Shown: positions 16,400-60,373, numbered from the stretch's first letter. The stretch: 64,000 nucleotides of DNA from an uncultured Lachnospiraceae bacterium (GCA_965645705.1 CBFFWQ010000011.1:1-64000), one strand, 5' to 3'. Notes: generated from the sequence alone by a model not told the origin. Numbers and translations: made by a program.

Positions 16400-16690
16400 C
16401 TTTTTACCACCTTTCTACTATCGAAAAATAAATGCACTTTTCCAAAATCAATAATTTATTTGCACATAAATTAAAAATACTTTTTTTATTGTTTTCACGC
16501 CGTTGATTTTAATTAAAAATTTTATGTTTTTTTCAAAAATTTTGTATTTTCTTCAAAAAAAAAAAGATTTCGTTATACTTACGAAATCTCCGAGTCACGA
16601 CACAAAGGTAAGAACCTAAGCACAAAACCCTATCATAAACAACAATACTGCAACTTACAAATGCACAGAATCTAAAAGTAATCAAGTCTG

Positions 16691-17798: not shown

Positions 17799-18002
17799 TT
17801 ATTGAGATTCCTCTGTTATTTCCATTAAAAGATTAAGGTTATATGGTTCTTTTCCTCTACCTATAATTAGCTCCTGATACTTTTGCTCATATAAATCCTC
17901 ATCAAATTGTGTAAAAGTTTCATCAGATGCAACATGGGACTGTCTTTCACAACAGGAAATAAAATCAGTACCAAGAAGACAAGAAAGCTCGTCTGCTTTC
18001 AT
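17799..18002 (-). pseudogene. Fragment of the retropepsin-like protein family (LLGTDFISCCERQSHVASD matches LLGADFISCCQWQCNIASD of the 34190 ORF)
   Basis: Local similarity to the C-terminal half of 34190..34774. Lies in an otherwise ORF-poor region. Confidence 0.35.
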
Positions 18003-18423
18003 TTCATAGTGCGGTCGTGCACATCACTTTATACTAAGCGGTTATGTTTTTCGACCGCTAGTATAGTAACATTAAATTTATGATTACTATCATCTATTTC
18101 GTAGATCAATTCTTTTAACATAGTAGCACTTAGAATCATACTAAATGAAACTGCTGTATCACTATTAGATATCACAGGTAAACTTGGAAACATTAAATCA
18201 CCAAGTTCAAACATAATTCGATATAAATTTCTCGTAGCTATGCCACTGAAGCCTGTAAAAGAAACATTTTTTACCAATTTAGCATTAAATTTTTCTAATA
18301 ATATCCTTTCATTTGCTGTCCAAACTGGGAAATAAGCTACAGTATCTAAAAGAACTCTTAGCCCATCTTATAATTTTATTACAGGACGTTGTTGCGTAGC
18401 ATCCAAATTTAATGTAAATTGCT

Positions 18424-18660
18424 TCATCCATGTACCCTCACCATACCTAATTGAAAGACATTATCTGGAGTAGTATACACAGCATCAACCTCTCCTTCGA
18501 TTGCCATTACTGTCAATTCATCTTTTGATTTTTCCGTGTACTTTACAACAGCAGATTCTACAGAAACTACATCATCATTTACATACCTCACATCAACCAA
18601 ACCTACCCACCTGTCAGGGTACTTTTCCTGAATTTGTTTCCATGTTAATCTTTCTTCCAT
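18424..18660 (-). CDS. Hypothetical small protein
   Basis: ORF only. Confidence 0.25.
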   Translation of the reverse strand: MEERLTWKQIQEKYPDRWVGLVDVRYVNDDVVSVESAVVKYTEKSKDELTVMAIEGEVDAVYTTPDNVFQLGMVRVHG

Positions 18661-19280
18661 AAATTACCTCCATTCTAAATAGTACGTTATCGGCTTCTCA
18701 TTCATTCTATCACAGTATTGTATTAAATTCCATAAAAAAATTACAAATTATTTTTGCTTTCAAAATGAAAAGAGAATCCAATACAATTAGCGTGTATGCC
18801 TTTTAATGACTAAATTTAAAATAGAGGAACGTTGACTATTACTTTTATGTAAAATTACAGTCTAAACTTCGGATACCTTTTGAATACAAGAAAAAGAATT
18901 ATTAAAGGTACTGTTAGCTACATCAAAATCATATTTCTTATAGCAATCCAATAAAAGTATAGCGTATTGCTAAATGCAAATTATATTATTTTCAATTTGT
19001 ATAATGCTGTTTAAATTTTTATTTGATTGCTATAAAAGCAATGAAAAACTGACCTAAAGAGCCAAGCAGAATATCGCAATCATCACTACTCATACACAAT
19101 TCACTATAATGAATTTTTAAATACTTTTCATTCTTATGATTTTATCTATCAACTTTTCTACATCTTTAGAGTCGATTTTTACCCACTGAGGTGCAGACTT
19201 AAAGGATTCCACTTGATGATTTTGTAAAAATACCATACACTGTTTTGCATTATGCTGAATCATCATTGCGTTTTTCCAAT

Positions 19281-19460
19281 ACCAGAACCACTGACTACTC
19301 CCACAGGCAAACTTGTGGTGTTCTCACTACCAAGCATAGTTCGTAATCGTACATCATTTTCAGACGTTGGAAGTACAAATATAAATCTATTTGAGTGAAA
19401 ACTTTTATTATCAAGCAGTCCAACGACCACATATTCAGAATAAACGCATAAACGGAAACA
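19281..19460. repeat. Direct repeat copy A (about 150 bp, roughly 85% identical to 20262-20420). Has a conserved small hairpin with a compensatory substitution.
   Basis: By-eye alignment. Hairpins are CCACAGG...CTTGTGG (A) and CCACAGG...CTGTGG (B). Confidence 0.6.
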
Positions 19461-19630
19461 ATTGCACAAAAAGACATTTTTGTTTATTTTACTAAAATTG
19501 AGTTAAAGTTTAACTATAACTTAAATTACAATATTCCCTACCATATTATCGCAGAAATTTCACGAAAATTACCAAAAAAATATGTAATAATATGCTTCTA
19601 TTTTCAGCAAACATTTTTCGCAAAAATGCC

Positions 19631-19660
19631 TTGACATGGGCGTTGGTAGCAAGGTATAAT
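19631..19660 (+). promoter_or_regulatory. Consensus sigma-A-type promoter (TTGACA, 18 nt, TATAAT) driving the plus-strand small ORF
   Basis: TTGACA at 19631-19636, TATAAT at 19655-19660, then AGGGAGG SD 8 nt before the ATG at 19691. Confidence 0.6.
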
Positions 19661-19690
19661 GAAAACAGTTAATGAAGGGAGGCGACAATT

Positions 19691-19900
19691 ATGAAATCAA
19701 AAAGTTTTATCGTTGGAATTGTACTATTTTTATTAGAAGTTATAGATATAATAATTTTAAATTCTATATGCTTAGAGATTGCCGCTGGAACGACAAGCTT
19801 ACTCACCATCCTTGCATCAATGCTTTTATGGATTCCTGCCTTTGTTTTTATATACATCTCGGCAGTATACCTTATAAGAAAATTATTCTGTAATTGCTAA
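19691..19900 (+). CDS. Small (69 aa) two-TM hydrophobic protein (holin-like or type-I-toxin-like)
   Basis: Strong promoter and SD. Two predicted TM helices. Bracketed by the direct repeats. Confidence 0.5.
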   Translation: MKSKSFIVGIVLFLLEVIDIIILNSICLEIAAGTTSLLTILASMLLWIPAFVFIYISAVYLIRKLFCNC

Positions 19901-20261
19901 GCCCTAATGAAATGTACTAGAGTGACTACTGCTTTAAAAAATAAAATTCATAAAACAGTAGTCACTTTTGCACGCACTCATTGTTGTGCATTCATTCTGT
20001 AACTAATCTTCTATTCTCTATTTTATATGATAGTGATTGCATAAAAGCTTCGTTACAAAACTAAAGAAATAAAATTCCCTATAAGCAATAGACTTAACAT
20101 CACTTGGTGTTAATGCCTACCTTACAAGGAAATAAATTATTCTGTTGTACCAGAAAATAATCTTTAATTTAAAAAGTTTTTCTTGCGATCTTGAATAACA
20201 GAATCTAAAGGTTTATAAAACTTCTCCAACCATCTACAACAGAAAACATTTTATTTATGAA

Positions 20262-20420
20262 TTGACCACTCCCACAGGCTAGTCTGTGGTGTTCTCACTA
20301 CAAAGCGTAGCTCGTAATCGTACATCATTTTCAAATTTTGAAAATACAAGTGTAAATCTATTTTGAATGAAAACTTTCATTACCAAGCAGTCCAATAACC
20401 ACATTAACAGTAACTTTCTG
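20262..20420. repeat. Direct repeat copy B (partner of 19281-19460)
   Basis: See copy A. Confidence 0.6.
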
Positions 20421-20614
20421 CCTTTCGACAAAGAAGTATAGTCAACCTCCATGAATATTTAAGCTGTTTTAGATTATGTGTTTATTCTAATTGTTAATTA
20501 AAAGTGGCTTTCGCCCAATACGCAAGCATGAGAGTTTTTCTCCACGAAATTATAATAACAACCAAAAAACTCAAACTTTCTGCAATACTCATAAATTTAC
20601 TTTGTAGCAATTCC

Positions 20615-28889: not shown

Positions 28890-30420
28890 CCAAATCTAAA
28901 GTTTGCACACTGGACAAACTTTGATACAACTGTCTCATGTCCATCTACTCTATCTTTGCCTACTCTGATTCTGATACCAGTACCATTTGCCCACAACCAT
29001 AAAGTACGATCATTCTTCCCTTCAAGCAGAAGCACACTCTTCTTGTTTCTTTTATTCACGTTGGCTTGTCACACTCTGCAATACCTCTCAGGAACTGTCA
29101 AAAATTAACTTTTAAATTTGAGGTTTGATAACATAGTTCCATTTTCCAAGTGTTTCACAGGGAAAAATGTTAATTCTAGCTAATTCGTCATCCGATATCT
29201 TGTGCCCGGTTTCATATACTTTCTCATCAAGCTGGCAGGTAATGGACAATCCTTTTTCTGTTGTTGTATTTGATATTAAACTGATTATTGTTTCAATATC
29301 AATCAATGGATGCCCCTGCCAATTTTTTGAAATATAACAGAACATCCTGTGTTCTATTTTGTTCCATTTTGATGTGCCGGGCGGATAATGGGAAACCATG
29401 ATCTCAAGTCCTGTATCATTGACCAACTGCTGTAATTCGTATTTCCAGTTGCGGCTATCGGAACCGTTGCTCCCACTACCATCACACGTGATATAAATTC
29501 GTTTTGCCGCAGGAAATGTATTTTTTCCAACAGCATTCCACCAACACGAAATACTGGTTACCGCAAATTCCGATGTGTCATGGCTGGTTCCGAGGTTCAC
29601 AAAACCAGTATTGTTATTGAGGACATAGACCCCGTAAGGTGCCACCTTTCCTAATTCAGGTATCGGGAAATCATGATCCAGTACTTTGCGAGGATTTTTT
29701 TCTTCTCTGTATTCTGCACCAGCGTTCTTGAAATTGCCAATGTTCTCTTTTTTCTTTGTGTCAACAGAAATAACTGGCTCCCCGTTCTCCAGATACTCGT
29801 GGGCAGTATGGTCAATCAATTCAAACTGTTTATTACGGTCTGGACTCGGTATGCCGACTTGTTCCATTTTTTGGTTCACCTGTTTGCTGTAGCCCATTTC
29901 TGCCAAAAGCTGTGATATCTTTTCATGACTTACCGTTATGGAATAATCCTCTTCGAGGATATCCCTGATTTGGCGGAGGCTGAGAGTAGATGCAACCCAG
30001 TGCAGTTCTCTGGAAGGATCGCCATATGTGCTGCCATCAATTATTTTTTCGATGGTCTCTGTGATGTTTGGATAGGTCTCCGTGATTGGTTTACGACCAG
30101 CACCTTCTTTGCGGATTCTGCTATCCGAAATAACCTCATCATTCTCGGAATCAGCCTTTCCAACAGTCAGGGTTGGATATGAGATGCCGGTTAATTCAAC
30201 AATGTGAGCCTTTCCACCGCTGCCATATACATCCGCAGCTTTACTCAAAAGGATCCGCTTACTTTTTTCATCTGATAACTTATTTATTAGCGAAACAAGT
30301 TCGTCAAATGAAGCTATATTTATAATATTCATGGCATACTGCTCCTTATCTAATCTATAAAAAGAGTATACTATAATATGCCATGATTTAAAAGTTATTT
30401 ATTGACAATTCCTCAGTAGC
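28890..30420 (-). mobile_element. ISAzo13-family insertion sequence, about 1.5 kb, visibly higher GC than its flanks
   Basis: Contains the transposase ORF. The compositional shift starts near 28890 and ends near 30400. Terminal IRs not resolved by eye. Confidence 0.55.
29112..30332 (-). CDS. ISAzo13-family DDE transposase
   Basis: 406 aa. Matches the Rhodopirellula-type DDE transposase layout (YPPGTSKWNKIEHRMF and other motifs). Confidence 0.75.
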   Translation of the reverse strand: MNIINIASFDELVSLINKLSDEKSKRILLSKAADVYGSGGKAHIVELTGISYPTLTVGKADSENDEVISDSRIRKEGAGRKPITETYPNITETIEKIIDGSTYGDPSRELHWVASTLSLRQIRDILEEDYSITVSHEKISQLLAEMGYSKQVNQKMEQVGIPSPDRNKQFELIDHTAHEYLENGEPVISVDTKKKENIGNFKNAGAEYREEKNPRKVLDHDFPIPELGKVAPYGVYVLNNNTGFVNLGTSHDTSEFAVTSISCWWNAVGKNTFPAAKRIYITCDGSGSNGSDSRNWKYELQQLVNDTGLEIMVSHYPPGTSKWNKIEHRMFCYISKNWQGHPLIDIETIISLISNTTTEKGLSITCQLDEKVYETGHKISDDELARINIFPCETLGKWNYVIKPQI

Positions 30421-36021: not shown

Positions 36022-37099
36022 CATACAGAACCTTCTCCTTTCTATTGCACAAAACAATCTGTCTTCGAATAGGACAACCACCCATACACAAGACTCTATC
36101 TTTACACAAAGGGCAAGATTGCTTGAAGAATGATCTAAAGGGACAAAACTGAGGACTGTCCCATGCTTCTTTAATAGAATGATTGTGTAAGTCAAATCCC
36201 CACCGCAGCTCCTGATTATCAAAAGAACATGGCATGGCAATCAAATCAGCACTTACATACATAGACCATCTTCCGCCTTCACAAGTATCAATACTAACTG
36301 ACTCTACCTTTCGACAACAATTCACAATTCCAGGAACACTGCAACTGTCGAATCCTATTTTAAAAGGAAAATTCCCCCTATCTACCAGATGAAAAAACTC
36401 CCTAACTTTTACATCATGAAGTTTCAATACATTCTCTTCCATACCTAAACCTATTGGTTTATGAAGAAGAAAAATAACTGCATTAATCCCCTCTGGGAAA
36501 TCTTTCTTCTTCAGCCTATCTAAAGCTTCGTCAATAGAATTGTTTCCCAGTACATAATGAATATTTGTCTTAACACCCGCCTTGATAAGTGCCTGAATCG
36601 CATCTAAAATGTGCTGCTGCCGATACCAACTAATTGCTACTGCACCACAATACTGCTTACACAATTCTACAATTTTCTCAGTAAAACCAATGCCAGAGGA
36701 AGTGAAATTAGGTACAATATGATTCTTTTTACAACACTCTAATATTTCTTTGAAGTTTTCATGCTGGTCAACGTCACCCCTCCCACCTAAAGCAAACTGA
36801 AAAGTTTTGCCTCTGCATTCCCTTGCAAGTCTTTGGAACTCACTCAAAGACATATTAGGCTTTTGTACGTGTAAGCCGTCCTGATAACACTGCACTCCTG
36901 CCTTCATGCACAATACACTCTTACCATGCATACAGTGTCCCATGACACCAACATCAATAAGTTCTGGAAAAGATGCCATGAAAGGATCTTCTCCTGTATC
37001 TTTCCCATCTCTAATGATACCTATCCTGCAATACTCCCCTGTCTTTGTATTAAAAATAGAGACAAAATGATTCTCTTCATCCACTTTTCTGATAACCAA
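36014..37099 (-). CDS. Cys-rich protein with a C-terminal CxxCx5Cx3C (SPASM/twitch-like) cluster. Possible non-canonical radical-SAM/Fe-S enzyme.
   Basis: C-terminal CPLCKDRVLCMGGCP. No canonical CxxxCxxC found. Confidence 0.3.
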   Translation of the reverse strand: MVIRKVDEENHFVSIFNTKTGEYCRIGIIRDGKDTGEDPFMASFPELIDVGVMGHCMHGKSVLCMKAGVQCYQDGLHVQKPNMSLSEFQRLARECRGKTFQFALGGRGDVDQHENFKEILECCKKNHIVPNFTSSGIGFTEKIVELCKQYCGAVAISWYRQQHILDAIQALIKAGVKTNIHYVLGNNSIDEALDRLKKKDFPEGINAVIFLLHKPIGLGMEENVLKLHDVKVREFFHLVDRGNFPFKIGFDSCSVPGIVNCCRKVESVSIDTCEGGRWSMYVSADLIAMPCSFDNQELRWGFDLHNHSIKEAWDSPQFCPFRSFFKQSCPLCKDRVLCMGGCPIRRQIVLCNRKEKVLYEV

Positions 37100-37288: not shown

Positions 37289-38743
37289 CTATTTCTGCAA
37301 TCTACGTAACAAATCCATCTTCACGGCATAATAGTCTGGAGTGAAATCTAAATAATGCTGATGTGGATTTTCAAAACGTAACTCTTCCTTCCACACTTCA
37401 TGCTGTAATTGATGCTGTACTTGTGCCCTAATTTCTTTCAAAGAAGGTGACCTATACACTAATTCACCATTTCTAAAAATCGGAACCTGTAATTTTCTTA
37501 CGGTGTAGTTCTCAAAAAACCTCTGTTTCCATGGCATAGCTGGATCCACATACCGAAAAGGCTTCGTAAAATTAAGACATTCACTCTGTTTTCCAATTAA
37601 ATCAGCGATGGATCTACCATACTCATCGTAAATTCTGTAAACACTTTTTAAACCCGGATTCGTAATCTTTTCCACATTCTCTGAAATTTTAATACGTGGA
37701 ATAAAAGTAAGTCCATGTTTTGCCACTGCTGCCAGCTTATACACTGCACCAAAAACGGAATCACTCTTAGCAGTAATCAAACGTTCTCCAACACCAAAAA
37801 CATCAATAGCCGCATTTTGATTAACTAAAGAAGCAATTGTAAATTCATCCAGACTATTGGAAACAATCACCTTGCAATCAGACATACCAGCGTCCATTAA
37901 CATCATAGTGGCTTTCTTTGATAAATAAGCTAAATCTCCACTATCGATACGAATCCCCTTGAGCCTCTTACCTTGTGGTTCCAATACTTCTTTTGCTACT
38001 TTAATTGCATTCGGTATACCACTTTTTAACACATCATAAGTATCTACCAATAAAACACAAGCATCTGGATAAATTTCTGCATACTTCTTAAATGCGGTAT
38101 ACTCATCTTCAAAATACATTACCCAACTATGTGCCATTGTACCCGATACAGGAATCCCAAAAGTCTTTCCTGCCAGTACAGTCGCAGTACTATCTACGCC
38201 ACCAATATAAGCAGCTCTTGCACCATAGACAGCTGCATCTGCATTGTGAGCACGCCTTGCACCAAAATCAGAGACTATTCTTCCCTGAGCTGCACGAACA
38301 ATACGGCTTGCTTTTGTAGCAATTAAAGACTGATGATTTACCTGTAACAAAATTGCTGTTTCAATTAACTGAGCGTCAATCAAAGGAGCGACTACCGTAA
38401 TCACTGGCTCATTTGGATACATCACGGTTCCCTCTGGAAAAGCGTACACATCGCCGCTAAATCTAAAGTTCTGCAAATAACTTAAAAACTCTTCCTTGAA
38501 AATTTTCTGCTCACAAAGATACTCAATATCATCTTCCTCGAAATGAAGTTCCTGTATATACTCAATTATTTGTTGTAACCCAGCAAAGATAGCATAACCA
38601 CCGCCATCGGGATTCTTTCTATAAAATACATCAAAAGCCACACGCTGCTCACTTTTTGCTTGACTGCTATTAAAATAGCCATTACTCATGGTTAATTCAT
38701 AAAAATCCATGAGCATAGATAAATTCCTTTCGTTGTTTTTCAT
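37289..38743 (-). CDS. pncB: Nicotinate phosphoribosyltransferase
   Basis: LMDFYELTMSNGYF N-terminus, FGARRA, SGTMAHSW, 484 aa. AGGGGA SD. 11-nt gap from pncA. Confidence 0.85.
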   Translation of the reverse strand: MKNNERNLSMLMDFYELTMSNGYFNSSQAKSEQRVAFDVFYRKNPDGGGYAIFAGLQQIIEYIQELHFEEDDIEYLCEQKIFKEEFLSYLQNFRFSGDVYAFPEGTVMYPNEPVITVVAPLIDAQLIETAILLQVNHQSLIATKASRIVRAAQGRIVSDFGARRAHNADAAVYGARAAYIGGVDSTATVLAGKTFGIPVSGTMAHSWVMYFEDEYTAFKKYAEIYPDACVLLVDTYDVLKSGIPNAIKVAKEVLEPQGKRLKGIRIDSGDLAYLSKKATMMLMDAGMSDCKVIVSNSLDEFTIASLVNQNAAIDVFGVGERLITAKSDSVFGAVYKLAAVAKHGLTFIPRIKISENVEKITNPGLKSVYRIYDEYGRSIADLIGKQSECLNFTKPFRYVDPAMPWKQRFFENYTVRKLQVPIFRNGELVYRSPSLKEIRAQVQHQLQHEVWKEELRFENPHQHYLDFTPDYYAVKMDLLRRLQK

Positions 38744-38754
38744 CTTGATATCCC

Positions 38755-39285
38755 CTATGCAATTTTAATCTGGCAAGATGCCATTGTTTCTAAAGCTGCT
38801 TTATGTTTTTCTGGCGTTACACCTGCACAGCACTTGCTATCAACACTAATAGGAACTTCTGGAAGAAATGCTTTCAACAGAAGAGCATTAGAAACTACAC
38901 AAATATCTGTACATAATCCAATCAGCTCCACACTCTCTGGGTTCAAGCTTTTTACATCTAAAGCCAGATTCGTGCTACCAAAAGTTTCTTTCTTGTAAAT
39001 AGGACAATCTGCCAAAAGATCTCTTACTACTGGGTGCAGTTGCCAGCCTTCTTCTCCTTCTTTGCAATGCTCTACAGGTAACAATTTTCCTTCTTGAGTG
39101 AATTTATAATTCTCATGATGTGTATCCATTGTTACATAAATTTGATAATCTTCTGCTTTGCACTTCTTAATCTTTTCTACTACTGCCTGAACAATGCCCT
39201 CTGCTTCCTTAGAACCTAAAGAGCCTGTGATGAAATCATTTTGAAAATCCACTACGATGAGTACTTTGTTTCCTTTCTTTTTCAT
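38755..39285 (-). CDS. pncA: Nicotinamidase / isochorismatase-family hydrolase
   Basis: VLIVVDFQNDFITGSL, catalytic Cys context GLCTDICV, 176 aa. Confidence 0.75.
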   Translation of the reverse strand: MKKKGNKVLIVVDFQNDFITGSLGSKEAEGIVQAVVEKIKKCKAEDYQIYVTMDTHHENYKFTQEGKLLPVEHCKEGEEGWQLHPVVRDLLADCPIYKKETFGSTNLALDVKSLNPESVELIGLCTDICVVSNALLLKAFLPEVPISVDSKCCAGVTPEKHKAALETMASCQIKIA

Positions 39286-39341
39286 AATTTTTACAATTAA
39301 AAACTGATAACCACCAAGCAGCTATCAGTCTAAATATTATA

Positions 39342-39863
39342 TTATTTAATTTTCTTATCTCCAAATGCATTTACTGTATTCGCTTTTTCAAATGAGGAGG
39401 ATTTATCATTCGTATCTTTGATTTCGAAATCATCAGAAACATCTTCATCTATATCCAACATTTCAAAATCATCAAGAAATTCTATAATTTCAGAATATAA
39501 ATCATACCTTTCTTCAAAACATAATTCATAAACTTGATTAAAAGCATCTTTACTGTAGCTAATCAAGTAAGTTTTAATAAATTTATCAAAATCTCCTATA
39601 TTTTTCATTTCATGAACCAAAGAATTTCTCATATCTGTAAATGCAGTAGGTACTTTCGCTGAAATACGATTTTTCACACATTTATAATTTGCACATTTAT
39701 TTTCTTTATAACTGCAAACGAGCTGTATTGTTTCAAATAAGCGTATGATTAACAAAGTTAAAGTTGCCTCACAAGGAAAATCCCTAAAATCTCTTAAAGT
39801 TCTCGCAAGGACACGTTTAGCCTCAGAAACCTCCTCAAAAGCAACAACTTGCTTATTAGGCAT
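39342..39863 (-). CDS. HEPN-domain protein (Rx4H motif in MRNSLVHE) ending ...NTVNAFGDKKIK (VNAF-tail set)
   Basis: Rx4-6H motif in a predicted helical context, plus the shared tail. Confidence 0.45.
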   Translation of the reverse strand: MPNKQVVAFEEVSEAKRVLARTLRDFRDFPCEATLTLLIIRLFETIQLVCSYKENKCANYKCVKNRISAKVPTAFTDMRNSLVHEMKNIGDFDKFIKTYLISYSKDAFNQVYELCFEERYDLYSEIIEFLDDFEMLDIDEDVSDDFEIKDTNDKSSSFEKANTVNAFGDKKIK

Positions 39864-40182
39864 TTAACCACCGCCCATCTCTGTAAACACACGTTAAATT
39901 ACGAATACCTGTTTGCTTTGGGTCAAAATCTTTTACTTTCTCTCGTACAACACCATGCCAATAATTTGTTTCTTCATCAGAATATAATTCTTCAAACTCC
40001 TCTACATCAATTACAGTAATATCATTTGAATCAATAATTAGCCATAATAATGAATGATACGTAGGATCATCAAAATTTTTTGGCTCTGTTACCCACAATT
40101 CCTTAGCTAAAGGATTTTCCATTAAATCTTCCCATTTCTTTCTTACAATTTCTCTATTCAATTCCATGATTAACACCTCCAT
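39856..40182 (-). CDS. Small acidic protein, tandem paralog B (about 75% aa identity to 40311..40619). Its stop overlaps the HEPN start, making it a candidate immunity/antitoxin partner.
   Basis: 8-nt overlap with the HEPN gene. Paralogy extends to the nucleotide level. Confidence 0.45.
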   Translation of the reverse strand: MEVLIMELNREIVRKKWEDLMENPLAKELWVTEPKNFDDPTYHSLLWLIIDSNDITVIDVEEFEELYSDEETNYWHGVVREKVKDFDPKQTGIRNLTCVYRDGRWLNA

Positions 40183-40310
40183 ATTTTAATAAAAACTATA
40201 AGTACCTTCATAAATATTTTATCACATTATAAAATAAATGTCCAACTATTATTCTACAATTAACTTTTACTTCTTTCGCATAATCAATTATTTTCTCTAT
40301 AATACTATAG

Positions 40311-40619
40311 CTAGTGCAACCACCGCCCATCTCTATAAACACACGTTAAATTATGAATACCTGTCTGTTTTGGATCAAAATCTTTCGTTTTTTCTCGCAC
40401 AATACCATACCAGTAATTTGCTTCTTTATCGGAATAAAGTTCTTCAAACGCATCTACATCAATCACCGTTACATCATCAGAATCAACAACAAGATGTAAT
40501 GACGGATGACACGTAGGATCATCAAAATTCGCTGCTTCTGTCACCCACAATTCCATAGCTAAAGGGTTCTTCATTAACTCTTCCCAGCGTTTTCTTATAA
40601 ATTCTCTATTAGTCACCAT
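40311..40619 (-). CDS. Small acidic protein, tandem paralog A
   Basis: Same family as 39856..40182. Confidence 0.45.
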   Translation of the reverse strand: MVTNREFIRKRWEELMKNPLAMELWVTEAANFDDPTCHPSLHLVVDSDDVTVIDVDAFEELYSDKEANYWYGIVREKTKDFDPKQTGIHNLTCVYRDGRWLH

Positions 40620-40634
40620 GTCACAATCACCTGC

Positions 40635-41696
40635 CTAAACATCTGATAATGCCTTAATAATACCACACGCCTTATAATGTTGCAATGGATAATACTCTAT
40701 GGAAACTTCTTTTTCTTTCGCCAATTGTTTGATACTATTCAAACAAGGGTCAACAGCAGACGCTTCGCTCACTAACACTTTCCACGGAACTCTCCTTAAT
40801 AGCACTCTTGTAGTTTCTCCAATTCCTGGCTTAATAAGGTTCACGTCCTTAATTTTAAATTTTTCCGCCAATTTCCTGACTTCGTCAATGCCATGACCTA
40901 AAGGGACAGAATCTTGTACCATAGAATTTTCTTGAAACTCCGACTCAATGGCATTAATGAATTCATACGACAAATCAGAATCTTTCAATTCTTCATAATA
41001 AACAGCACCATGAAAATCATTAACTCCAATAACATCATCACGTAAAAAAGTTCTGCTAATTAAACCTGAAACAGTACTGTTTAAACAAGAACTTGGTATT
41101 AATAAATCTTCATGAGTACCGCATAATTCCGTTACATTCGCTGGGTCAGCTACAACAGCAAGTTCTGGATTAACACCAGGGTAATCAACTAAAGCTTTCT
41201 GCAATGTATTCTGGATTGCACCTTTACCAATCCAACCATCGACAAACAGAAGATCACCTGCATCATACTGCCCCAACAACCATTTCATTGCATTGTGATC
41301 GATACCCTTACCACGAATAATAGAAATGGAATAGTGCGGAACTTCTATTTGCCACTTCCACTTTAAATACCGTTTCAGCAAAATCCCAATCGGAGTACCT
41401 GCACGAGCTAAAGAAACCAGCACAACATTCTTTCCACGAGCCTGCACAATCTTCTCTGCAAGCACTCCAAGGGCAACAGCTACTGGCTTTGCATAGTCCC
41501 TAAGAGCTGCTTGATATACTTCTAAATATCTTTGACTTGGTACATACTCAATAGGCAACATCTCACAATAATGCTTACCACTCTGAATTAGCTTTTCTCT
41601 TTCTTCCGTTGACTGAGGCTTTACCAGTCCAGTAATATCCTTTAACAATAAAACTACATCATCCTCTGAATACGAACTTCTCAACTCTAACACCAC
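40635..41696 (-). CDS. StiP-like protein (the family usually paired with an atypical PRTase in Ter-associated metabolite modules). Overlaps the PRTase gene by 10 nt.
   Basis: Size, operon partner and recalled family resemblance only. Confidence 0.35.
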   Translation of the reverse strand: MVLELRSSYSEDDVVLLLKDITGLVKPQSTEEREKLIQSGKHYCEMLPIEYVPSQRYLEVYQAALRDYAKPVAVALGVLAEKIVQARGKNVVLVSLARAGTPIGILLKRYLKWKWQIEVPHYSISIIRGKGIDHNAMKWLLGQYDAGDLLFVDGWIGKGAIQNTLQKALVDYPGVNPELAVVADPANVTELCGTHEDLLIPSSCLNSTVSGLISRTFLRDDVIGVNDFHGAVYYEELKDSDLSYEFINAIESEFQENSMVQDSVPLGHGIDEVRKLAEKFKIKDVNLIKPGIGETTRVLLRRVPWKVLVSEASAVDPCLNSIKQLAKEKEVSIEYYPLQHYKACGIIKALSDV

Positions 41697-42817
41697 CTAA
41701 CTAATGTAATACTCTTATTACCACACGAAACTAAAGCATTCACTAAAGAATAAACCCCAGTAGCTACTAACTCTTCGGCATCGGTCAAAATAAATACTTG
41801 ATCGTACTTGGTCAAATTATACACAAAAGTCTTCCTGCCTTTTTCATACAAGCTGACTAATTCCCATCGCTCGTGTAATGGATACTCTTTCTCTGTACTG
41901 ACTGCAATAGGACTACGTGTTGTAGCATGGAACTTAACGGTAACTCCTGCCAAATCTTCTATTTTCTTCGCTACGTACAAAACTGGATACATAAATTCTT
42001 CTGTACCCAAAACTAAAGTACTGCTGTCAGGTAATACTCTACTTTTCATACTATTCCAGAAAAAATTACACACTGCCTGATAATCTGCTGGTGAAGACAA
42101 CTTGCGGGTATCAATGCCACACTGCACGTTAATGCACTCTATGGGACAAACATCACAATCCAAATCATGATAATAACCATCTTCTCTATAACCATTCGCA
42201 ATCGCTTCATAGCCTCTATGGTCTGTCTTAACGAGATAATGCACTTGAATTCCACGATTTTCAAAATGGGCAAGAGCTTCCCTGTCCATACCATTTAAAA
42301 GAGAAGCAACAGAATACTGAAGTCTGTCAGACCATTCTTTCTCCATAGCACCAATCAAATCGAGAATCGTATTCCCTGTTGTTACTTCATCTTCTACAAA
42401 AACAATACGCTTAATCTTACCATGTAGAATGGTTTCTTTCATGCCGTCTTTCACTAACTTCTGTTCTGTAGCATGGCTATGTGATTCTGTAAAAAAAAGA
42501 TAATCTGCCTGATACAAGCACTCTCTTGTGGTCTGCACATACTGCATTCCAAGTTTCATTGCTACGCACGCACCAATTGCCGTAGCTGTCCCAGCGAACC
42601 CAATAACTAAAGTAGAATCTTTATCATACTGATTTGCAAGCAAATTACTAAGTTGACTGAATAAAGAAAATGTTTCTGTCGGAGAAACTGGTACGTGCTT
42701 TCCTTGCAATGGGTTAACTACAAGATACTTTCTTTTATTATTATTTTCTCTTTTGGCAATCTTTACCAAATCACTTTCACTGTACAAAATAAAAACTCCT
42801 TCCTTAATCATACTCAC
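41687..42817 (-). CDS. Phosphoribosyltransferase-domain protein (large atypical PRTase)
   Basis: PRPP-binding motif IVFVEDEVTTGNT. Confidence 0.65.
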   Translation of the reverse strand: MSMIKEGVFILYSESDLVKIAKRENNNKRKYLVVNPLQGKHVPVSPTETFSLFSQLSNLLANQYDKDSTLVIGFAGTATAIGACVAMKLGMQYVQTTRECLYQADYLFFTESHSHATEQKLVKDGMKETILHGKIKRIVFVEDEVTTGNTILDLIGAMEKEWSDRLQYSVASLLNGMDREALAHFENRGIQVHYLVKTDHRGYEAIANGYREDGYYHDLDCDVCPIECINVQCGIDTRKLSSPADYQAVCNFFWNSMKSRVLPDSSTLVLGTEEFMYPVLYVAKKIEDLAGVTVKFHATTRSPIAVSTEKEYPLHERWELVSLYEKGRKTFVYNLTKYDQVFILTDAEELVATGVYSLVNALVSCGNKSITLVRWC

Positions 42818-42941
42818 TAGTTGTAAAATTTACACCTAACTGAAAAGATACACCAAACGCAATAAATCTAAAGGCTCGTAAGTGTAATAAAAACTTTTCC
42901 ACTAACAATTTTCAATCATTAATGAAACAGCTTCTTATTAT

Positions 42942-43517
42942 TTAAATTAATATGTATGCTGATACAAATGTCTTGGGTAATGTTTTTCCGTTGTAGCCTT
43001 CCATATGACATTTTGCAAAATCATCTCTGTAATCTTCTATTGTTAATTGCTTAGACCAATCACCATCAGCATAACAATTTTCAAAATCACATCGAAATTT
43101 ATCACCATAACATTTTATAAAAAATCTCGCTACAAAATAATACTGCCAAGGCTCTTCCATCAAATCCCCAATTGGTTCTTCAAATGCTTTCGCCCTGATA
43201 TTAACAACTTCCATTGGAGATTTGCATTTTTTAAATAAATTGTAATAATCATTAACATCTCTATACGGATACGGAAGAATAACACTATTTCTTAATTCCA
43301 TTAAAAGTCTTGCATTCATACCAACTTCGATATAACCTTCATAATTAGCGAGTTTATACTCATAATCATAGCACAAAATTTCACAAATTTCATATAAAGG
43401 ATTATCATCTTCATCAGTACCGATATTTGTAATCTTATACTTATTAAGAATTTCGTTCTCAATTTCTTGATACGTCTTTTCTTTCGTGAAATCTTTCAAT
43501 AGACTTAGATCGATCAT
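42942..43517 (-). CDS. Hypothetical protein, paralog of 60374..60949 (for example LLMELRNSVILPYPY vs LMELRKSCILRLP, and EEPWQYYFVARFFI vs DENWQYWWATRLFI)
   Basis: Intra-window paralogy. Confidence 0.35.
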   Translation of the reverse strand: MIDLSLLKDFTKEKTYQEIENEILNKYKITNIGTDEDDNPLYEICEILCYDYEYKLANYEGYIEVGMNARLLMELRNSVILPYPYRDVNDYYNLFKKCKSPMEVVNIRAKAFEEPIGDLMEEPWQYYFVARFFIKCYGDKFRCDFENCYADGDWSKQLTIEDYRDDFAKCHMEGYNGKTLPKTFVSAYILI

Positions 43518-43794
43518 TACAAAAACGCTCCTTTCTTCCTTACCGTTGTTGCAAAATTATTTTCCTCAGCTGTAATTTTTCGTCTACCATTTTCATCTTA
43601 AATCAAATGAGAAACTACATTACCGTAAACATAAATTTATCCTCTAACTAAAGGCAGGAAGAACTTGGAATGAGCAGAATACTGAATAATAATAATAATA
43701 ATAATATATTCAATTCTACTATTCAAGGTTAAGCACCTTGCCTGCCTTAACAGCTCATTGTAGCTTAATCTCTACACAATCTAAAGCGAAGCAA

Positions 43795-44622
43795 TTAGGA
43801 TACTACTAAATCATAAAGTTCTTTCGGTAAATAATTCCTTAAGAGCTCATCTGCATTTGGAACAGTCTCATGATAAAATTCCTCTGCAATGCCACCACCG
43901 ATTGCACATAGTGTATCCGTGTCGCAACGAATGCTCAGCACATTCCTGAGAAAACTCTCATAATCTTCAGAATCTAAAAAGCATCGAATTGCTACAGGAA
44001 TACTTCCTTGACAAGTTGTATCCCAACCACACTCTCTCCGCATCTCATCTAAAGTCATAGATACTGGATACAAACATGAACTATCTGGATACTGCTTAAG
44101 AGCATACTCCCCAATCTCCTTTTTAGATGCACCTGTCTTTGCCATGAAACCACATACTGCCGTAACCACAGCACCTTTAATACCTTCTGCATGATTATGC
44201 GTACACGCAGCAGAACTTTCTGCATACTGAGATACTGATCCTAATGTATCAAAGAAATCTACAACAGGAGAGACTCTCATGGCAGAACCATTACCGCAAC
44301 TATTGTAAGGTTGCCTGTCACAAGATTTTAACCATTTACTAAAACCGCCGCCATAACTACAATCAGGATACTTAATCCCAAATTCGTAATAAGCATCTGC
44401 AAACGATACGTTATTTTGCAACGCATACTTTGTTGCAATTGTTAAAACGGTATCATCAGTATAAAAACAATCTTTTGCAAATAATTCTACACCTTTCCAA
44501 TCAAGATTCCATGGTCGATTAAATTCCCATTTAGAACCTGTAATGTCACCTAAAATTACACCTATTATTGCCAATGGCAAACACTCCTCTCTGTTCTGAC
44601 CTAAAGGGAAGTCGTAAATCAA
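43795..44622 (-). CDS. ADP-ribosylglycohydrolase (ARH/DraG family)
   Basis: GDITGS, YTDDT, GNGSAMR, HNHAEG and GGGIAEE motifs. Confidence 0.75.
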   Translation of the reverse strand: MIYDFPLGQNREECLPLAIIGVILGDITGSKWEFNRPWNLDWKGVELFAKDCFYTDDTVLTIATKYALQNNVSFADAYYEFGIKYPDCSYGGGFSKWLKSCDRQPYNSCGNGSAMRVSPVVDFFDTLGSVSQYAESSAACTHNHAEGIKGAVVTAVCGFMAKTGASKKEIGEYALKQYPDSSCLYPVSMTLDEMRRECGWDTTCQGSIPVAIRCFLDSEDYESFLRNVLSIRCDTDTLCAIGGGIAEEFYHETVPNADELLRNYLPKELYDLVVS

Positions 44623-45013
44623 AAAATCCTTACTGTCTACGCTCTTCCAGTACTTGGAATAAACTTTCTTTTACATTTGCTATATCACTATACAACGCAT
44701 TTTCTGAATCCATACAATCTTTTCAATAGGTGCTAAATTCAAAATTGCATCTATTTCGTGATATAACTTTTCTAAACGCTCGTATACGCTACTTACCACC
44801 TTTCTTATTTTGGAAACACTATAATAACAGTTTCATTTTATACCTGTTTTCACAAGTAGAATAACAACCAAAAATTCTATGCATAAGCTATAAAATTTTG
44901 CACAAACTAAGTATGCAACAATCTACTTTAAAAAACAATGTGGCAGTTGTGGATCTCACAAAAACTCTCAACCACCCGAGAATAAGATTGCAAATTTTAA
45001 GCCCAACATTAAA

Positions 45014-46333
45014 TTATAACGATTTTACCACCATTGCATTATTGTTTGGCATAATTTTGACTAAAGGAACATTACAATAGGAAGCAAGATGAATAGCCAT
45101 ATCTTTATCTTGTTTTTCTGCATCATACCTAAAGAAAGTACCGACTGGTTCTATTGGATACGTTAATACAATCTCATTACAACGCAATTGAGTACAATTT
45201 AACATAAAAACGTTAAATGGAAAATAACCATCATCATACTCCTCTTCAATAGCCATCAACTCTACAACAGTATCCACGTAAGAATACGCAAAGATAGTAT
45301 TCAAAATACTTTTCGGATCAACTACTGACTGAATTTTTGTATTGGAATCTGTTGCTGTCATCAACTTTACATTATGTGCTTTTGGTAAATAAATAAAACC
45401 CACCTTACGATTATTGTAAGTATACAGATGTGATTCTGTAATAACACTAGTAGAAAATACAGGGTGCTGCGTGGTAATAAAAGGATTGAAATGATCGAAA
45501 GCTTGGATAATAAAAGCATATTTCTCAAGTATCTGAATTTCAGAAATACTTGAATGAAACGATGTTAAATGTTGATACCAATCTTTCATACATAAAGTTT
45601 TTACTTCTCTTTCAAACGATTCAAATTCATTTAGATTTCCTTCTAATTCTTGACACAATACAATAAACTCTTTTACATCAATAACTAAAGTAGGCTTCGA
45701 AAAATCTATTGCATTCTTTATAGTAATTAATGAATTGTGATTAATTTTATCAATAAAATCTGTATACTGCTTTTCTGCAATAGCCATTTTCTTTACAGAA
45801 TAGTCATAATCCGCAAACAAACTTTTATCATAGTATTTTAAAGAATTTCTTATACGTTTAAAGCGAATAGGAAAACTCTTTATTTCTGATTGTAAAACAG
45901 AAAAGTCGTTATCAAAAATCAAATACTCTGTTGCCTGCCTCTGAAGATAAAGTAGCATATCCGCTTTATTTGATTCCATTACAATAGATTTATCTGAAAA
46001 ATTTTCACCACCAACATCAAATGGTACATAGGATTCTAAGTAAATCTTAATATAACCTAAAGGAAGCCATCCAGCGGTATTGGCAACATAATCAGAATAC
46101 CTAACTGCCTTATACAACTTTTCATTATATGTACGAACTTCTGTACGTTCTTCCATTACTTCTTCCTGATCACTAGAAAACTTTCTAACAATAAATGCAA
46201 CAGGAAAATCATTAATAGTTACCTCTTTGACCTCAATTGATGTGCTATCGTACACATTTCTACTGCATAACTTACGATGCCTTTTTGTCGGAAAATACTT
46301 CTCTTCATACCAGTAATTAATTTCAAATACCAT
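45014..46333 (-). CDS. Hypothetical 439-aa protein
   Basis: ORF only. Confidence 0.35.
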   Translation of the reverse strand: MVFEINYWYEEKYFPTKRHRKLCSRNVYDSTSIEVKEVTINDFPVAFIVRKFSSDQEEVMEERTEVRTYNEKLYKAVRYSDYVANTAGWLPLGYIKIYLESYVPFDVGGENFSDKSIVMESNKADMLLYLQRQATEYLIFDNDFSVLQSEIKSFPIRFKRIRNSLKYYDKSLFADYDYSVKKMAIAEKQYTDFIDKINHNSLITIKNAIDFSKPTLVIDVKEFIVLCQELEGNLNEFESFEREVKTLCMKDWYQHLTSFHSSISEIQILEKYAFIIQAFDHFNPFITTQHPVFSTSVITESHLYTYNNRKVGFIYLPKAHNVKLMTATDSNTKIQSVVDPKSILNTIFAYSYVDTVVELMAIEEEYDDGYFPFNVFMLNCTQLRCNEIVLTYPIEPVGTFFRYDAEKQDKDMAIHLASYCNVPLVKIMPNNNAMVVKSL

Positions 46334-46790
46334 AATACGCCTCCTTACTCTAAACCGATTGTATTATTTACAGTTTCATTATTACTTCGATAATTAAAAT
46401 GAGTATAACCTAAAGGACTAACATATCTACTGCCTAAAGGACTTATACTATAATTTTAATTACTGAATAATAGATAAATAACTAACAGACCGCAGAGCTA
46501 TAAATACAGTTTTAATCAAAGGAGACAGAGAAAGAATTTACTCGGGAATTACATTTCTACCAACATAAAAGAAGATGAAATTATAATTATGCTTAAAATC
46601 AAGGACAAGAATTCAGAGCAAAAATTAATGGTTATCAGATTCAGAATACTTCTTATTACTATTATAGCATTAAATGAATTTATACCTATGAGTTATAAGT
46701 CTGCCATTAACTAAAAGACATGATGACTTATTTTAAATGATTGCTCTAAAAATATCAAATAAAGTCTTGCAATTTAAACTTAATTATTGT

Positions 46791-46817
46791 ACTATTATTT
46801 GAGTTTCCCCATTTTTT
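46791..46817. repeat. Left arm of an inverted repeat (22 bp perfect core AAAAAATGGGGAAACTCAAATA in reverse complement) bounding a 1.47-kb non-coding segment
   Basis: Reverse complement matches 48243-48264. Confidence 0.6.
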
Positions 46818-48242
46818 AGGTTTAGGTATCATCAAGCCCCATTTTTAATATGGTTAACAGGAAATTGGCAGCATAAACAGCTTGTTTTCTAAAATAAATC
46901 ATTATCCAAACTTGTTTAGAAAAAAATCTGTTTTAAAAGCATATCCCATTGCAAAAAAAACAAATTTGGAATTTTATAATCCTTTTTGAACATTCAAAAA
47001 TTTGGTCCATTAAACGGCTCCATTATTCAGAAAAAATATTCCCAGATAACCACTCCCAGTGTTGCAAAAAAATTCAGGTTACGTATGATTTAATGACATG
47101 ACACTAAACTTCAAAATAAACTGCTGTTTTAAAAACGGAAGTATCTTCTATCCTCCATCTCATAAGATAAACTTTTGTAACAAAAACACAGCTTTTTCTT
47201 CTGTATGTTCCTGTATTTCCAGTGTAAGCAGCACATTGATTTTTCCCAAAACCATACACTACAACAAGACAAGGCTTTGGGGAATGCACATAATCTTTAC
47301 GTATATAAATTATTTTACAACCTGGATTTTTTTGCCATTTCTGTCTGTAAAACCCCATACAAATTCCCTTTATATTTTTTTTCCACTCCATTATGTTACA
47401 GTTTATTTTTTAAATAATGTTCTGTTTTCCTTACACGTATATAAATTTCCTCCCTTTCAAGAAATACCTTAATAATCTTTTGCATCAAAGCCCCTGTCAA
47501 AGTCCTACGCAGTTTTTTTGAAATTTGCAGACATGTAATCAGCATTTTAAAATTTTCATCTGTTTCACTTAAAAAACCCTTTTCTGCCACTGAAAAACCA
47601 CTTTCATAAACAGCAGTGATTTACTTCCATATAAAACAGCAGCTTCAAATAGAAGGTATCCCTTTTTTATTCACCAGTACTGCCATCCCTTTACACAGAA
47701 AGGGCTTCCATTTTTTTACTGTTATGTTTCCTAAATCAGAAATTACAATTATGATAACAAACTTTTTTCATTAATCTAACAAATTTTTTACAAGCTAATG
47801 GTAAATTTTCTGTTGCCTATATTTTCTTTTGCCATTAAAACAAAGAAAGATTCCTTCATAAAGCCTGTCAACGCGTTTTTTTCCCAGACTCTGTTTTCTT
47901 CAATTGAACGTGCGATTTCACTCAGATTGCACTGCATGCTTCCAGTATTCCATAAACCATATCGGAGAGTATAAATTTTTTGCCGGTATTTCATCCCTTT
48001 TGAAAATTTTTTGCCTGAAATATAAACTCTAGTTTAAAAAACCCTTCTTTTAATTCCCTGCCACCTGTTTATAACTTAAATCCATGCAACCAAAACATCC
48101 TTATTTCCCACACCCTCGTGATTAAATATAACATAAATTGTTTGGCCACGCTAATAATGTTCTAAGCCTTTTTAATATGAAAAATTTTTATTAATAAAAG
48201 TTATATACTACTTATGTCCTTGCTTAAATTACATTTGTAATC

Positions 48243-48272
48243 AAAAAATGGGGAAACTCAAATACTATTATT
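48243..48272. repeat. Right arm of the inverted repeat, followed by the palindrome TTGACTGGACAGTCAA
   Basis: Direct reading matches the reverse complement of the left arm. The palindrome recurs at about 60335. Confidence 0.6.
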
Positions 48273-48347
48273 ATTGACTGGACAGTCAAAAATTCTGAGT
48301 TTGACTCTTCAGTTAATGACAAAAACGTATAAATGAGGTTTACAAAA

Positions 48348-48812
48348 ATGCCTAGAGGAAAAAGAAAATCTAAAGAAGAGGAAGAAAATGTTTCAACTGA
48401 TAAAACTACACCCGTAGAAAAAAGAACTGCAAAACAAATCAAAACTAAAGAGGAATCCCTGCAAGTCGTAGAAGAATCTCTGCAAGTTGCTGATGCTGCA
48501 AGTCATGATAAGCAAATAAACGCAGAAGTAACTAAAGAAACAAAACCAACAAAACCAAAAATGCACAAAAATAGAAAGAAAATAACAACGGAAGACATTT
48601 TATCTGACATAGCAATACAATACGGTGATAACGAGACTTCCGTTTTAGAAATCGTTGAAAAGGTGAAACAAGATTGTAAGAATAAGGGTTACAGAAAACA
48701 AGTTCGTAGAGTTTCTATGTACGTTAAACCAGAAGATGGCAAAGTTTATTATGCCTTAGACGACACTACAGACAGCGTAGAATTATTTGACGAGTCTAAC
48801 CAATCTGAATAA
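48348..48812 (+). CDS. Highly charged K/E-rich protein (MPRGKRKSKEEEE...). The only sizeable plus-strand gene.
   Basis: Start taken at the second ATG, preceded by a GAGG SD. Confidence 0.45.
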   Translation: MPRGKRKSKEEEENVSTDKTTPVEKRTAKQIKTKEESLQVVEESLQVADAASHDKQINAEVTKETKPTKPKMHKNRKKITTEDILSDIAIQYGDNETSVLEIVEKVKQDCKNKGYRKQVRRVSMYVKPEDGKVYYALDDTTDSVELFDESNQSE

Positions 48813-48951
48813 AATGCCTCTAAAACAAAAGGGTAGAGTCAGTAATCAATACCAACTCTACCCCATAGAATGCAACCCTTTTTTCACAATCCTACTTTTA
48901 CTAAAATCAAAGAATGTACCACCGTTAAGTGGAACGTCCTACTGCATAATA

Positions 48952-49671
48952 CTAACTCTTTACGATAGTAACAACTTCTGTAGCACTCCCTAATAATCTC
49001 TGAGAATCTAAATTATAAGCAGATACCGTAATGCTGACGGTATTCTCTCCTTTAGCTAAAGTTACATAAGCATCCCAATACGCAAGATCTCCTGGTTTAA
49101 TAAAAATACTGTTACAAAGTACTTTCTCCCCAGCTGAAAGAGAATACTGTAAATAAAAATCATTCTCTATTGGATTACTTAATTCAATTAGCTTAGACTT
49201 TTTCGACACTTCCAAATTGTTGTAATCAGGTAGCACAATATCCAGCACATCATCACCATCAACCAATTCCGCAATCTTAGCCTTTGTTTTAGAATCCGTA
49301 TCTAAAGTGTAATAATTTTTAGAATCTTTAAATACTACGATCAATACAATAACAAGGCACAAAAGCAATGTTACTGGTACGATTGCTTTCGTTGAATACG
49401 AATAATAATACGAACTTAGTATCGGAACTAGGACTGGATAGCTTCTATAATTTGAAGAACCACCATCTGAAATCGACTTTAGAGCGTGTTCCATCATACC
49501 AACATTCTTACGAATTTCTTCTTTTCTGTCAGTTCTGGTACAATAAAGAAATTCATACTCTGCATTCTTAATACACTCCATTATGACTTCCATTTGCTGT
49601 TCTGCATCCATCACAAGAAATTTTTTAGTCGAAAGAAATTTTTTAACTTTCACAAAACCACCTCTCTGCAA
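48952..49671 (-). CDS. Membrane-anchored hypothetical protein (central TM helix)
   Basis: ORF with hydrophobic segment LLLCLVIVLIVV. Confidence 0.35.
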   Translation of the reverse strand: MQRGGFVKVKKFLSTKKFLVMDAEQQMEVIMECIKNAEYEFLYCTRTDRKEEIRKNVGMMEHALKSISDGGSSNYRSYPVLVPILSSYYYSYSTKAIVPVTLLLCLVIVLIVVFKDSKNYYTLDTDSKTKAKIAELVDGDDVLDIVLPDYNNLEVSKKSKLIELSNPIENDFYLQYSLSAGEKVLCNSIFIKPGDLAYWDAYVTLAKGENTVSITVSAYNLDSQRLLGSATEVVTIVKS

Positions 49672-59862: not shown

Positions 59863-60373
59863 TAGGTCAACACCTCCTGATACTATAAAAATTGCAACAC
59901 CCAATGAAATAATAAATTCAACCACGTTAAAAAGAGTAGTTCATTGACTACTCTTTCGCATACGCACAAACAAGAATGCTAAATTAAAAGAAGTCATGCT
60001 TTTTCAGTATGCTCCCCTATAAAACTTGAATACTAACCGTTTTAACAAAATAGCTTGTTTTAATAATTTTCACTAACAATGAAACTCTCTTCTGCAATGT
60101 CAGAATTATTTTTAGAATGAATAATGATTATATCAATTTACTTAGATACATCTTTATCTATATTCATGAACTGTGAAATTTAACATGACCTAAAGGATCG
60201 ATAACTACAACAATTATCCTACTTGGCAAAACTAAAAATTCATAAATATAACAGTAATATTAGAAACAATCATTACAATCCATCATACATTTTCTAATTA
60301 GGAAAACCTATGAAATAAAACACTTATTGCAAGTTACTGGACAGTCAAAAATTCTTGCATACAGATAAATATA

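Follow-up and report, generated by a model that had tools for sequence, protein, structure and literature searches.

An insertion sequence between two divergent genes

The window analysed here is a stretch of 64,000 nucleotides from an uncultured Lachnospiraceae bacterium (GCA_965645705.1 CBFFWQ010000011.1:1-64000), and our subject is a segment of about 1.4 kb lying between a minus-strand gene for a DUF8359 protein and a plus-strand gene for a DUF6465 protein. A first-pass annotation made from the sequence alone had described this segment as poor in open reading frames (ORFs), bounded by 22-bp perfect inverted repeats, and explicable as an invertible switch, a decayed non-autonomous mobile element or a foreign insertion. 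Comparison with related contigs and with active relatives establishes that the segment at 46798-48262 is a genuine insertion of an insertion sequence (IS), whether its interior is noisy or decayed. The features of the locus are the following.

46798-48262, minus strand: IS4-family insertion sequence of full length (1,465 bp in the assembly; closest active copy 1,474 bp); absent from 10 related contigs and collinear with the IS of the best transposase homologue, P0001
46790-46797, no strand: left copy of the 8-bp target-site duplication, TACTATTA; present as a single copy in the empty-site contigs L001-L010
48263-48270, no strand: right copy of the 8-bp target-site duplication, TACTATTA; placed by junction comparison with the empty sites
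46798-46817, plus strand: left terminal inverted repeat, 20 bp, TTTGAGTTTCCCCATTTTTT; the end downstream of the transposase gene, with the identical 20-mer ending at least 120 elements in Clostridia
48243-48262, minus strand: right terminal inverted repeat, 20 bp; the end upstream of the transposase gene, with its junction also found in contig L011
46832-48085, minus strand: transposase reading frame (DDE_Tnp_1, YREK motif); placed by frameshift-aware alignment to the relatives L017, L038 and L095, with the ORF ends mapped from the P0001 IS
46877-48182, no strand: interior to which the 192 differences from the active IS are confined, at 14.6% per nt (78 deletions, 69 insertions and 45 substitutions)
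45014-46333, minus strand: DUF8359 gene, 439 aa, divergently transcribed; from the ORF map and the related contigs
48348-48812, plus strand: DUF6465 gene, 154 aa (Pfam DUF6465, E=2.3e-13); called as 154 aa in the related contigs

The insertion is seen most directly against uninterrupted versions of the same site. Exact-protein look-up of the neighbouring 439-aa gene returned 10 contigs (L001-L010) from different ENA and Logan samples, all of them 100% identical to window positions 46000-46799 and 48263-49000 (BLAST, with a 10-bp overlap). Positions 46800-48262 are missing from every one, and a single copy of the duplicated target is kept; the DUF8359 and DUF6465 genes stand ~540 bp apart in these contigs, as against ~2,015 bp in the window. 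In the junction alignment, TACTATTATT occurs once per empty site, and in the window one copy lies on either side of the segment. An eleventh contig (L011, sample SRR32673442) begins at window position 48234, 29 nt inside the right end, and runs into the flank, so that the right junction is independently supported. The 11 related contigs showed either an empty site or this same right junction and nothing else. The comparison of related strains for presence or absence of the segment, which had been proposed as a check, thus gave a clear answer, and with the terminal repeats, the duplication and the 10 precise empty sites it bears out the suggestion of a mobile element or foreign insertion. The transposition into the replicon was recent.

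The limits of the element required some adjustment. A repeat search returned a pair of inverted 28-nt arms (46790-46817 and 48243-48270) that are 93% complementary; their perfect core of 22 nt occurs exactly twice in the window and in 0 of 100 shuffles. The perfect repeat originally described is therefore real, although the true terminal repeat measures 20 bp and the other two bases belong to the duplication. As TACTATTA is a direct repeat that is itself near-palindromic, it accounts for both the two extra matching bases and the 28-nt extension of the arms. The boundary was fixed from the partner ends of other family elements, which had not been selected by the search pattern: 24 of 27 start with TTTGAG, which places the start of the terminal repeat in the window at 46798 and makes the duplication the 8-bp TACTATTA. 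From what is known of the family, the DDE transposase would bind the 20-bp terminal inverted repeats and excise the element, and insertion with an 8-bp stagger followed by repair would then yield the TACTATTA duplication found here.

Between the repeats, the enclosed ~1.4 kb contains no long ORF. The minus strand carries fragments of 95, 64 and 68 aa only, as the first-pass annotation had recognized, and Pfam and PHROG scans of these interior fragments gave nothing significant. Frameshift-aware protein-to-DNA alignment revealed what the fragments belong to: the minus strand of the window is homologous to intact transposases at residues ~21-398, with at least 14 frameshifts and at least 8 stops in the frame as assembled, and it keeps VYLMRWRIED of the YREK region. 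Recoding of a stop codon was considered and rejected, as TAA, TAG and TGA are all present in all three minus frames and no single reassignment restores an ORF. A structured RNA or an intron was likewise ruled out; an Rfam search of 46300-49000 gave no match at gathering score, only chance-level ones (E of about 1 or more), and no tRNA.

The IS family and its closest active copy

The terminal repeat belongs to a widespread family. A scan of GTDB species genomes for TTTGAGTTTCCCCATTTTTT gave at least 120 exact matches, a lower bound, and nearly all of those listed are in Lachnospiraceae or other Clostridia. Many of the listed matches lie less than 100 bp from contig ends, as expected for a multi-copy IS. 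Where ends could be paired at the listed loci, they delimit either full-length elements of 1,423-1,560 bp or derivatives of 86-350 bp resembling miniature inverted-repeat transposable elements (MITEs), with a recurrent class of ~195 bp, and most paired elements are flanked by 8-10-bp direct duplications. Duplications of this length flank 23 other elements of the family and each of the six copies of the P0001 IS. The ~195-bp MITE-like element, with the same terminal repeats and 8-10-bp duplications, recurs in many genomes of Lachnospiraceae (L015, L027, L047, L064, L076-L079, L093, L127 and other GTDB loci), and L020 holds a 2.2-kb derivative with the same terminal repeats and non-transposase ORFs. 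The family yields both cargo-bearing and miniature derivatives. Outside bacterial genomes, the 20-mer has only 1 match in 2.9 million IMG/VR viral contigs, and neither the 22-mer arm nor the neighbouring protein occurs in IMG/VR; the region gave no megablast or blastn match in INPHARED phages, and an intact family IS (L017) gave none in PLSDB plasmids.

Intact relatives measure 1,423-1,474 bp and encode one transposase ORF of 410-433 aa. The intact relative L038 scores 32.8 bits against Pfam DDE_Tnp_1 (cut-off 23), and PF01609 was found in P0001 and in most of the 120 listed homologues, out of 670 found in all. The motifs VIDxSD, DRGF/YD and YLMRWRIEEYFKFKK, the last corresponding to Y-(2)-R-(3)-E-(6)-K, are conserved in the intact transposases, and YL[LM]RW[RK]IEEY[FY][KR]FKK is conserved in L017, L095, L038 and L092. 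The IS4 family has been defined by a complete YREK signature, a single-ORF transposase and target duplications close to one helix turn in length (De Palmenaer et al. 2008, PMC2266710), whereas IS701, ISH3 and IS1634 have 4-6-bp duplications and an incomplete YREK (PMC2266710). The family described here has a DDE_Tnp_1-type transposase with the complete Y-(2)-R-(3)-E-(6)-K, and the duplication, 8 bp in the window, falls within the 7-13 bp of about one helix turn. Its terminal repeats enclose a single-ORF element within the 1.15-1.8-kb range, the window copy being 1,465 bp long with its ORF broken as assembled. It thus shares with the IS4 family (PMC2266710) the single-ORF DDE_Tnp_1 transposase, the complete YREK, the 1.42-1.47-kb size, the 20-bp terminal repeats, the 8-10-bp duplications and the MITE-like derivatives with the same ends. 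It differs in the terminal bases. The IS231, ISH8, IS4Sa, IS10 and IS50 subgroups end in CAT, CA, CT or CW, whereas the elements of this family start with TTTGAG; the TTTGAGTTTCCCCA end fully matches none of the tabulated IS4 subgroup ends (table in PMC2266710), and only the ISPepr1 consensus, YT-AA-YTT, is matched in part by the TTTGAG ends. Judged by its ends and by its low scores against the NCBIfam IS4 models, the IS in the window is a divergent, Clostridia-restricted lineage of the IS4 family, and we assign it to no subgroup.

A search with the frame-corrected translation of the window transposase as query gave the 670 homologues mentioned above, the best of which is P0001 (425 aa, 57% identity), and no near-identical fragments. 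The IS that encodes P0001 is 1,474 bp long and occupies at least 6 different sites in GCA_964018415.1; it is also present in GCA_964018235.1. Its copies carry terminal repeats identical to those in the window and 8-10-bp duplications, which marks it as an active element. The window element aligns with it at the DNA level from the first base to the last, at ~86% overall nucleotide identity, and the two share the terminal repeats, the outermost 80 and 79 nt and the range of duplication lengths. The P0001 IS has an intact 425-aa ORF, whereas the window copy differs from it by 192 interior edits and has no intact ORF as assembled.

The origin of the broken reading frame

The kind and the position of these differences are unusual. 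By unit-cost alignment, the 192 edits comprise 78 deletions, 69 insertions and 45 substitutions, so that single-base indels make up 147 of them (77%). All fall between positions 81 and 1395 of the P0001 reference, where the rate is 14.6% per nt, and they leave error-free ends of 80 nt (48183-48262) and 79 nt (46798-46876); under a uniform edit rate, two such clean ends have a probability of ~1e-11. In a MAFFT alignment, the substitutions are spread uniformly over codon positions (51/57/50), and transversions outnumber transitions. Sequence around the element behaves quite differently. The window outside it is 99.9-100% identical, without gaps, to short-read contigs, e.g., L146 over 16,750 bp (100%, no gaps), L135 over 12,525 bp (100%) and L001 over 9,544 bp (2 mismatches, no gaps). 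Where the same replicon shows natural divergence at 85-88% identity (L145 and L147), 177-194 mismatches stand against 10-12 gap openings, and members of the IS family at 68-72% identity, aligned over more than 1,100 nt, show only 13-19 gap columns. Natural divergence in both the replicon and the IS family thus consists of more than 90% substitutions, and, with the interior so much richer in indels, a technical origin is the most economical explanation.

We therefore read the segment, with a probability of roughly 0.8, as a full-length IS4-family insertion between the DUF8359 (minus-strand) and DUF6465 (plus-strand) genes of a large phage-like or otherwise extrachromosomal replicon, with an interior that is likely noisy fill. 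Directly observed are its terminal repeats, its duplication, the exact empty sites, the signature motifs and the homology to an IS that is live and multi-copy. As for the interior, short-read sequence would cover only the outermost ~77-80 nt of the repeat on either side, about the length of one k-mer, and the remainder would have been filled from one or a few uncorrected noisy single-molecule reads in a hybrid or gap-filled assembly. On the lesion spectrum and its location, the fragmentary ORFs are thus quite likely the product of noisy-read fill and not of biological decay, and the true element is probably intact and autonomous, with a gene for a ~425-aa transposase.

Several observations weigh against this reading or limit it. 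The technical origin is drawn from the spectrum and the location of the differences. Homopolymers account for 56% of the deleted bases against a background of 59%, and so show no enrichment, a pattern that fits a PacBio continuous-long-read (CLR)-type or generic noisy read better than a typical nanopore read and indicates no specific platform. Error density is raised at reference positions 100-300, where some true divergence from the P0001 IS is probably present. The perfect ends could, in principle, reflect selection for mobilization in trans. With regard to classification, the family transposase does not reach the NCBIfam equivalog score for IS4, the best model, transpos_IS4_3, giving 59.6 bits against a cut-off of 160; the NCBIfam IS701 models score lower still, and a score below the cut-off points to a divergent lineage and is compatible with the motif and duplication criteria. 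Finally, the replicon may be either a huge phage or a plasmid.

The alternative closest to this reading takes the assembled sequence at face value: a truly decayed, dead full-length IS that retained perfect ends through mobilization in trans and recently hopped into the replicon. An old pseudogene mobilized in this manner was the explanation first favoured, and several observations speak for it. Terminal repeats and duplication are perfect around a transposase frame with at least 14 frameshifts and 8 stops, active intact relatives with identical repeats exist, the family makes trans-mobilized non-autonomous MITE-like derivatives of 86-350 bp, and conserved ends around a decayed interior are what selection for mobility would be expected to leave. 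It was downgraded on the indel-dominated, interior-only spectrum and the substitution-dominated controls, and we now consider it unlikely. Decay would have to explain why 77% of the lesions are single-base indels when natural divergence of the replicon and of the IS family gives more than 90% substitutions, and why the clean zones (80 and 79 nt) are symmetric, abruptly bounded and far longer than the 20-bp repeat. A propagating decayed lineage should also have left a second copy or an ORF fragment somewhere, but neither the decayed interior nor any of its ORF fragments turned up again in any collection searched: the fragments of 95 and 68 aa are not on record by exact look-up, and a left-end 30-mer and an interior 30-mer found nothing by exact scan of JGI metagenomes and IMG/VR. 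Compared with a non-autonomous element, the window copy has ends in common with active copies and an ORF that is broken as assembled; its lesion spectrum points to sequencing noise. The description of the segment as decayed and non-autonomous is thus probably wrong, given a full-length element collinear with an active 1,474-bp IS and lesions confined to the interior. We find it more doubtful still that the indel-riddled interior is real in the specific form of a dead IS with ~80 nt perfect at each end, mobilized in trans and shaped by an unusual indel-dominated mutational process. If it were, one possibility would be an activity, encoded by the replicon or by the host, through which incoming transposons are scrambled.

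Two further explanations concern the segment as a whole. In the invertible switch initially proposed, a recombinase would flip the 1.4-kb segment and thereby toggle the DUF6465 gene in a phase-variable manner. Like an inverton, the window has inverted repeats bracketing a segment beside a gene, here the only sizeable plus-strand gene, and there are weak promoter-like matches inside the segment, although these are near the shuffle expectation (19 vs 12.5 ± 3.5). Invertons, however, need a nearby recombinase, and the recommended search for one found no Phage_integrase, Resolvase or Recombinase domain, i.e., no tyrosine or serine recombinase, in 55 window ORFs of at least 100 aa or in 32 genes of L001 spanning window positions ~35.0-57.8 kb, within ~10 kb of the segment. 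The only other recombinase-type gene met in the window encodes an ISAzo13-type transposase. Moreover, the repeats are not specific to the locus but are generic IS ends, TTTGAGTTTCCCCATTTTTT terminating at least 120 elements at unrelated sites, and a direct target duplication of 8 bp lies on either side of them; what they enclose is a transposase gene, and the entire segment is absent from the 10 related contigs. An inverton varies in orientation, whereas this segment varies in presence and absence among the related contigs, and the switch can be regarded as extremely improbable. It is only marginally easier to credit an assembly chimera, in which an IS copy from a co-occurring bacterium was misjoined into the contig. 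The interior does appear technically compromised, and copies of the IS are abundant in the likely host community. Nevertheless, both junctions lie in clean sequence of short-read quality and together form a perfect 8-bp duplication typical of the family, which a chimera would not create, and L011, an independent short-read contig, has the same right junction; we consider a chimera very unlikely.

Flanking sequence, the replicon and its hosts

The IS lies 76 bp upstream of the start codon of the DUF6465 gene and 457 bp upstream of the start of the DUF8359 gene. The plus-strand gene described in the first-pass annotation is real, having a DUF6465 match and being called at 154 aa in the related contigs, and, judging from the position of the IS, the insertion may alter its expression. 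The gene is disrupted in 2 of the 10 empty-site contigs. In L004 (8429-8897), a 4-nt insertion, AGCA, at window position 48610 splits it into 49 + 94 aa, and in L008 (2880-3363) other sequence replaces the part corresponding to window 48381-48514. The DUF6465 locus therefore appears to have been altered repeatedly, and the IS near the gene, together with the disruptions in two related strains, may hint that its loss or alteration is tolerated or perhaps favoured. A 40-aa plus-strand ORF is predicted across the insertion site in every empty-site contig (window 46737-46799 + 48273-48331; L001 9475-9597), and a 41-aa ORF is predicted just upstream of it (window 46589-46714). If these ORFs are real, the IS would break up a small gene that forms a plus-strand unit together with DUF6465.

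Next to the element lies a further feature of the native flank.

48274-48296, plus strand: near-palindrome TTGACTGGACAGTCAA overlapping the 20-nt repeat ACTGGACAGTCAAAAATTCT; present in the empty sites and so outside the element

The palindrome itself occupies 48274-48289 and starts 3 bp past the right duplication. Its presence in all empty sites assigns it to the native intergenic region. The reported recurrence near 60335 holds insofar as a 14/16 copy stands at 60333, which, however, has no left half-site. What the two places have in common is ACTGGACAGTCAAAAATTCT, an exact 20-nt direct repeat at 48277-48296 and 60336-60355 (2 copies vs 0.02 expected; the alignment scores 40, whereas shuffles reach 29 at most). 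Both copies are intergenic, the one upstream of the DUF6465 gene and the other between a 191-aa gene and a dnaX-like clamp-loader gene. In the first-pass annotation, the palindrome was taken to look like an operator for a dimeric regulator; such an operator would be common to the promoter region of DUF6465 and to the surroundings of 60335. A perfect 6+4+6 palindrome at 48274, a related site, TTGACTCTTCAGTTAA, 27 bp downstream at 48301, and the exact 20-nt repeat in common with 60336 speak for such an operator. However, with up to 2 mismatches allowed, the pattern TTGACT-N4-AGTCAA has 4 matches where 5.4 are expected, which is no enrichment, and near 60335 the left half-site is replaced by GTTACT and it is the asymmetric 20-mer that is conserved, so that a dimeric operator is not indicated. 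With only two copies, and with related contigs that are all 100% identical here and give no comparative signal, we regard the operator as a doubtful proposition. Another short sequence, TCTAAAG, occurs 74 times in the 64 kb (15.3 expected), 69 times on the plus strand (CTTTAGA on the coding strand), or ~1 per 865 bp; its sites (e.g., 411, 693, 724 and on to 63926) fall in genes and in spacers, and it may act as part of a promoter or as a signal for polarity or packaging. The segment does lack it, as had been pointed out, but this is uninformative, since a 1.46-kb gap is expected ~18% of the time and the TCTAAAG-free gap (44054-48369) reaches well into native sequence.

The replicon is at least 172-275 kb long in related assemblies and is transcribed almost entirely from one strand. 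It carries a clamp loader, a tail-fibre PHROG match, a DarB-like match and many accessory genes. A second IS is present at window 29087-30416, with 31-nt inverted repeats (87% complementary) and an intact ISAzo13-type DDE transposase of 406 aa at 29112-30332 (Pfam DDE_Tnp_ISAZ013, E=3e-115). Its region has a GC content of 0.41, against ~0.33 in the flanks. It is also present in L133-L137 and L146; in L145 and L147, the region next to its position instead contains a 735-aa AAA_33/RNA-ligase gene, at only 85-88% identity. The 866-aa product of window 737-3337 has the shoulder and repeat domains of the Major Vault Protein (MVP_shoulder, E=7e-22; Vault_3), which is unusual for a replicon of bacteria or phages, and a Band-7/SPFH protein is encoded at 11421-12419. 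A cluster of genes related to NAD, ADP-ribose and nucleotide salvage occupies 37289-44622 and includes the following.

37289-38743: NAPRTase
40635-41696: StiP + PELOTA
41687-42817: PRTase_2 + TRSP
43795-44622: ADP-ribosylglycohydrolase

In related contigs, genes of the macro-domain, HipA-like and endonuclease V-like types are added to this cluster, which may be a counter-defence or NAD-reconstitution module. Window 16400-20600, 4 kb with small ORFs only (up to 82 aa), has the same layout in related contigs at 99.5-100% identity, which makes it native sequence and not an assembly problem. Patches at 36447-37015 and 39853-40609 are 85-96% identical to L001 and its relatives within flanks of 99-100% identity, and their differences are substitution-dominated; this suggests mosaic recombination between strains.

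The biological weight of the finding is small, in that it adds one more IS4-family insertion, though in a large phage-like replicon. Phages have been reported to tolerate or carry few IS elements, about 1 per 346 kb (PMC3429520), and two in 64 kb would be mildly notable if the replicon is a phage. The locus also offers a caution: a noisily filled repeat interior can mimic a decayed pseudogene or an ORF-poor regulatory cassette. The host of the replicon is a gut member of the Clostridia, probably of the Lachnospiraceae. As the IS family is found almost only in Lachnospiraceae and other Clostridia, the insertion is useful as a host marker for a replicon that is otherwise unplaced.

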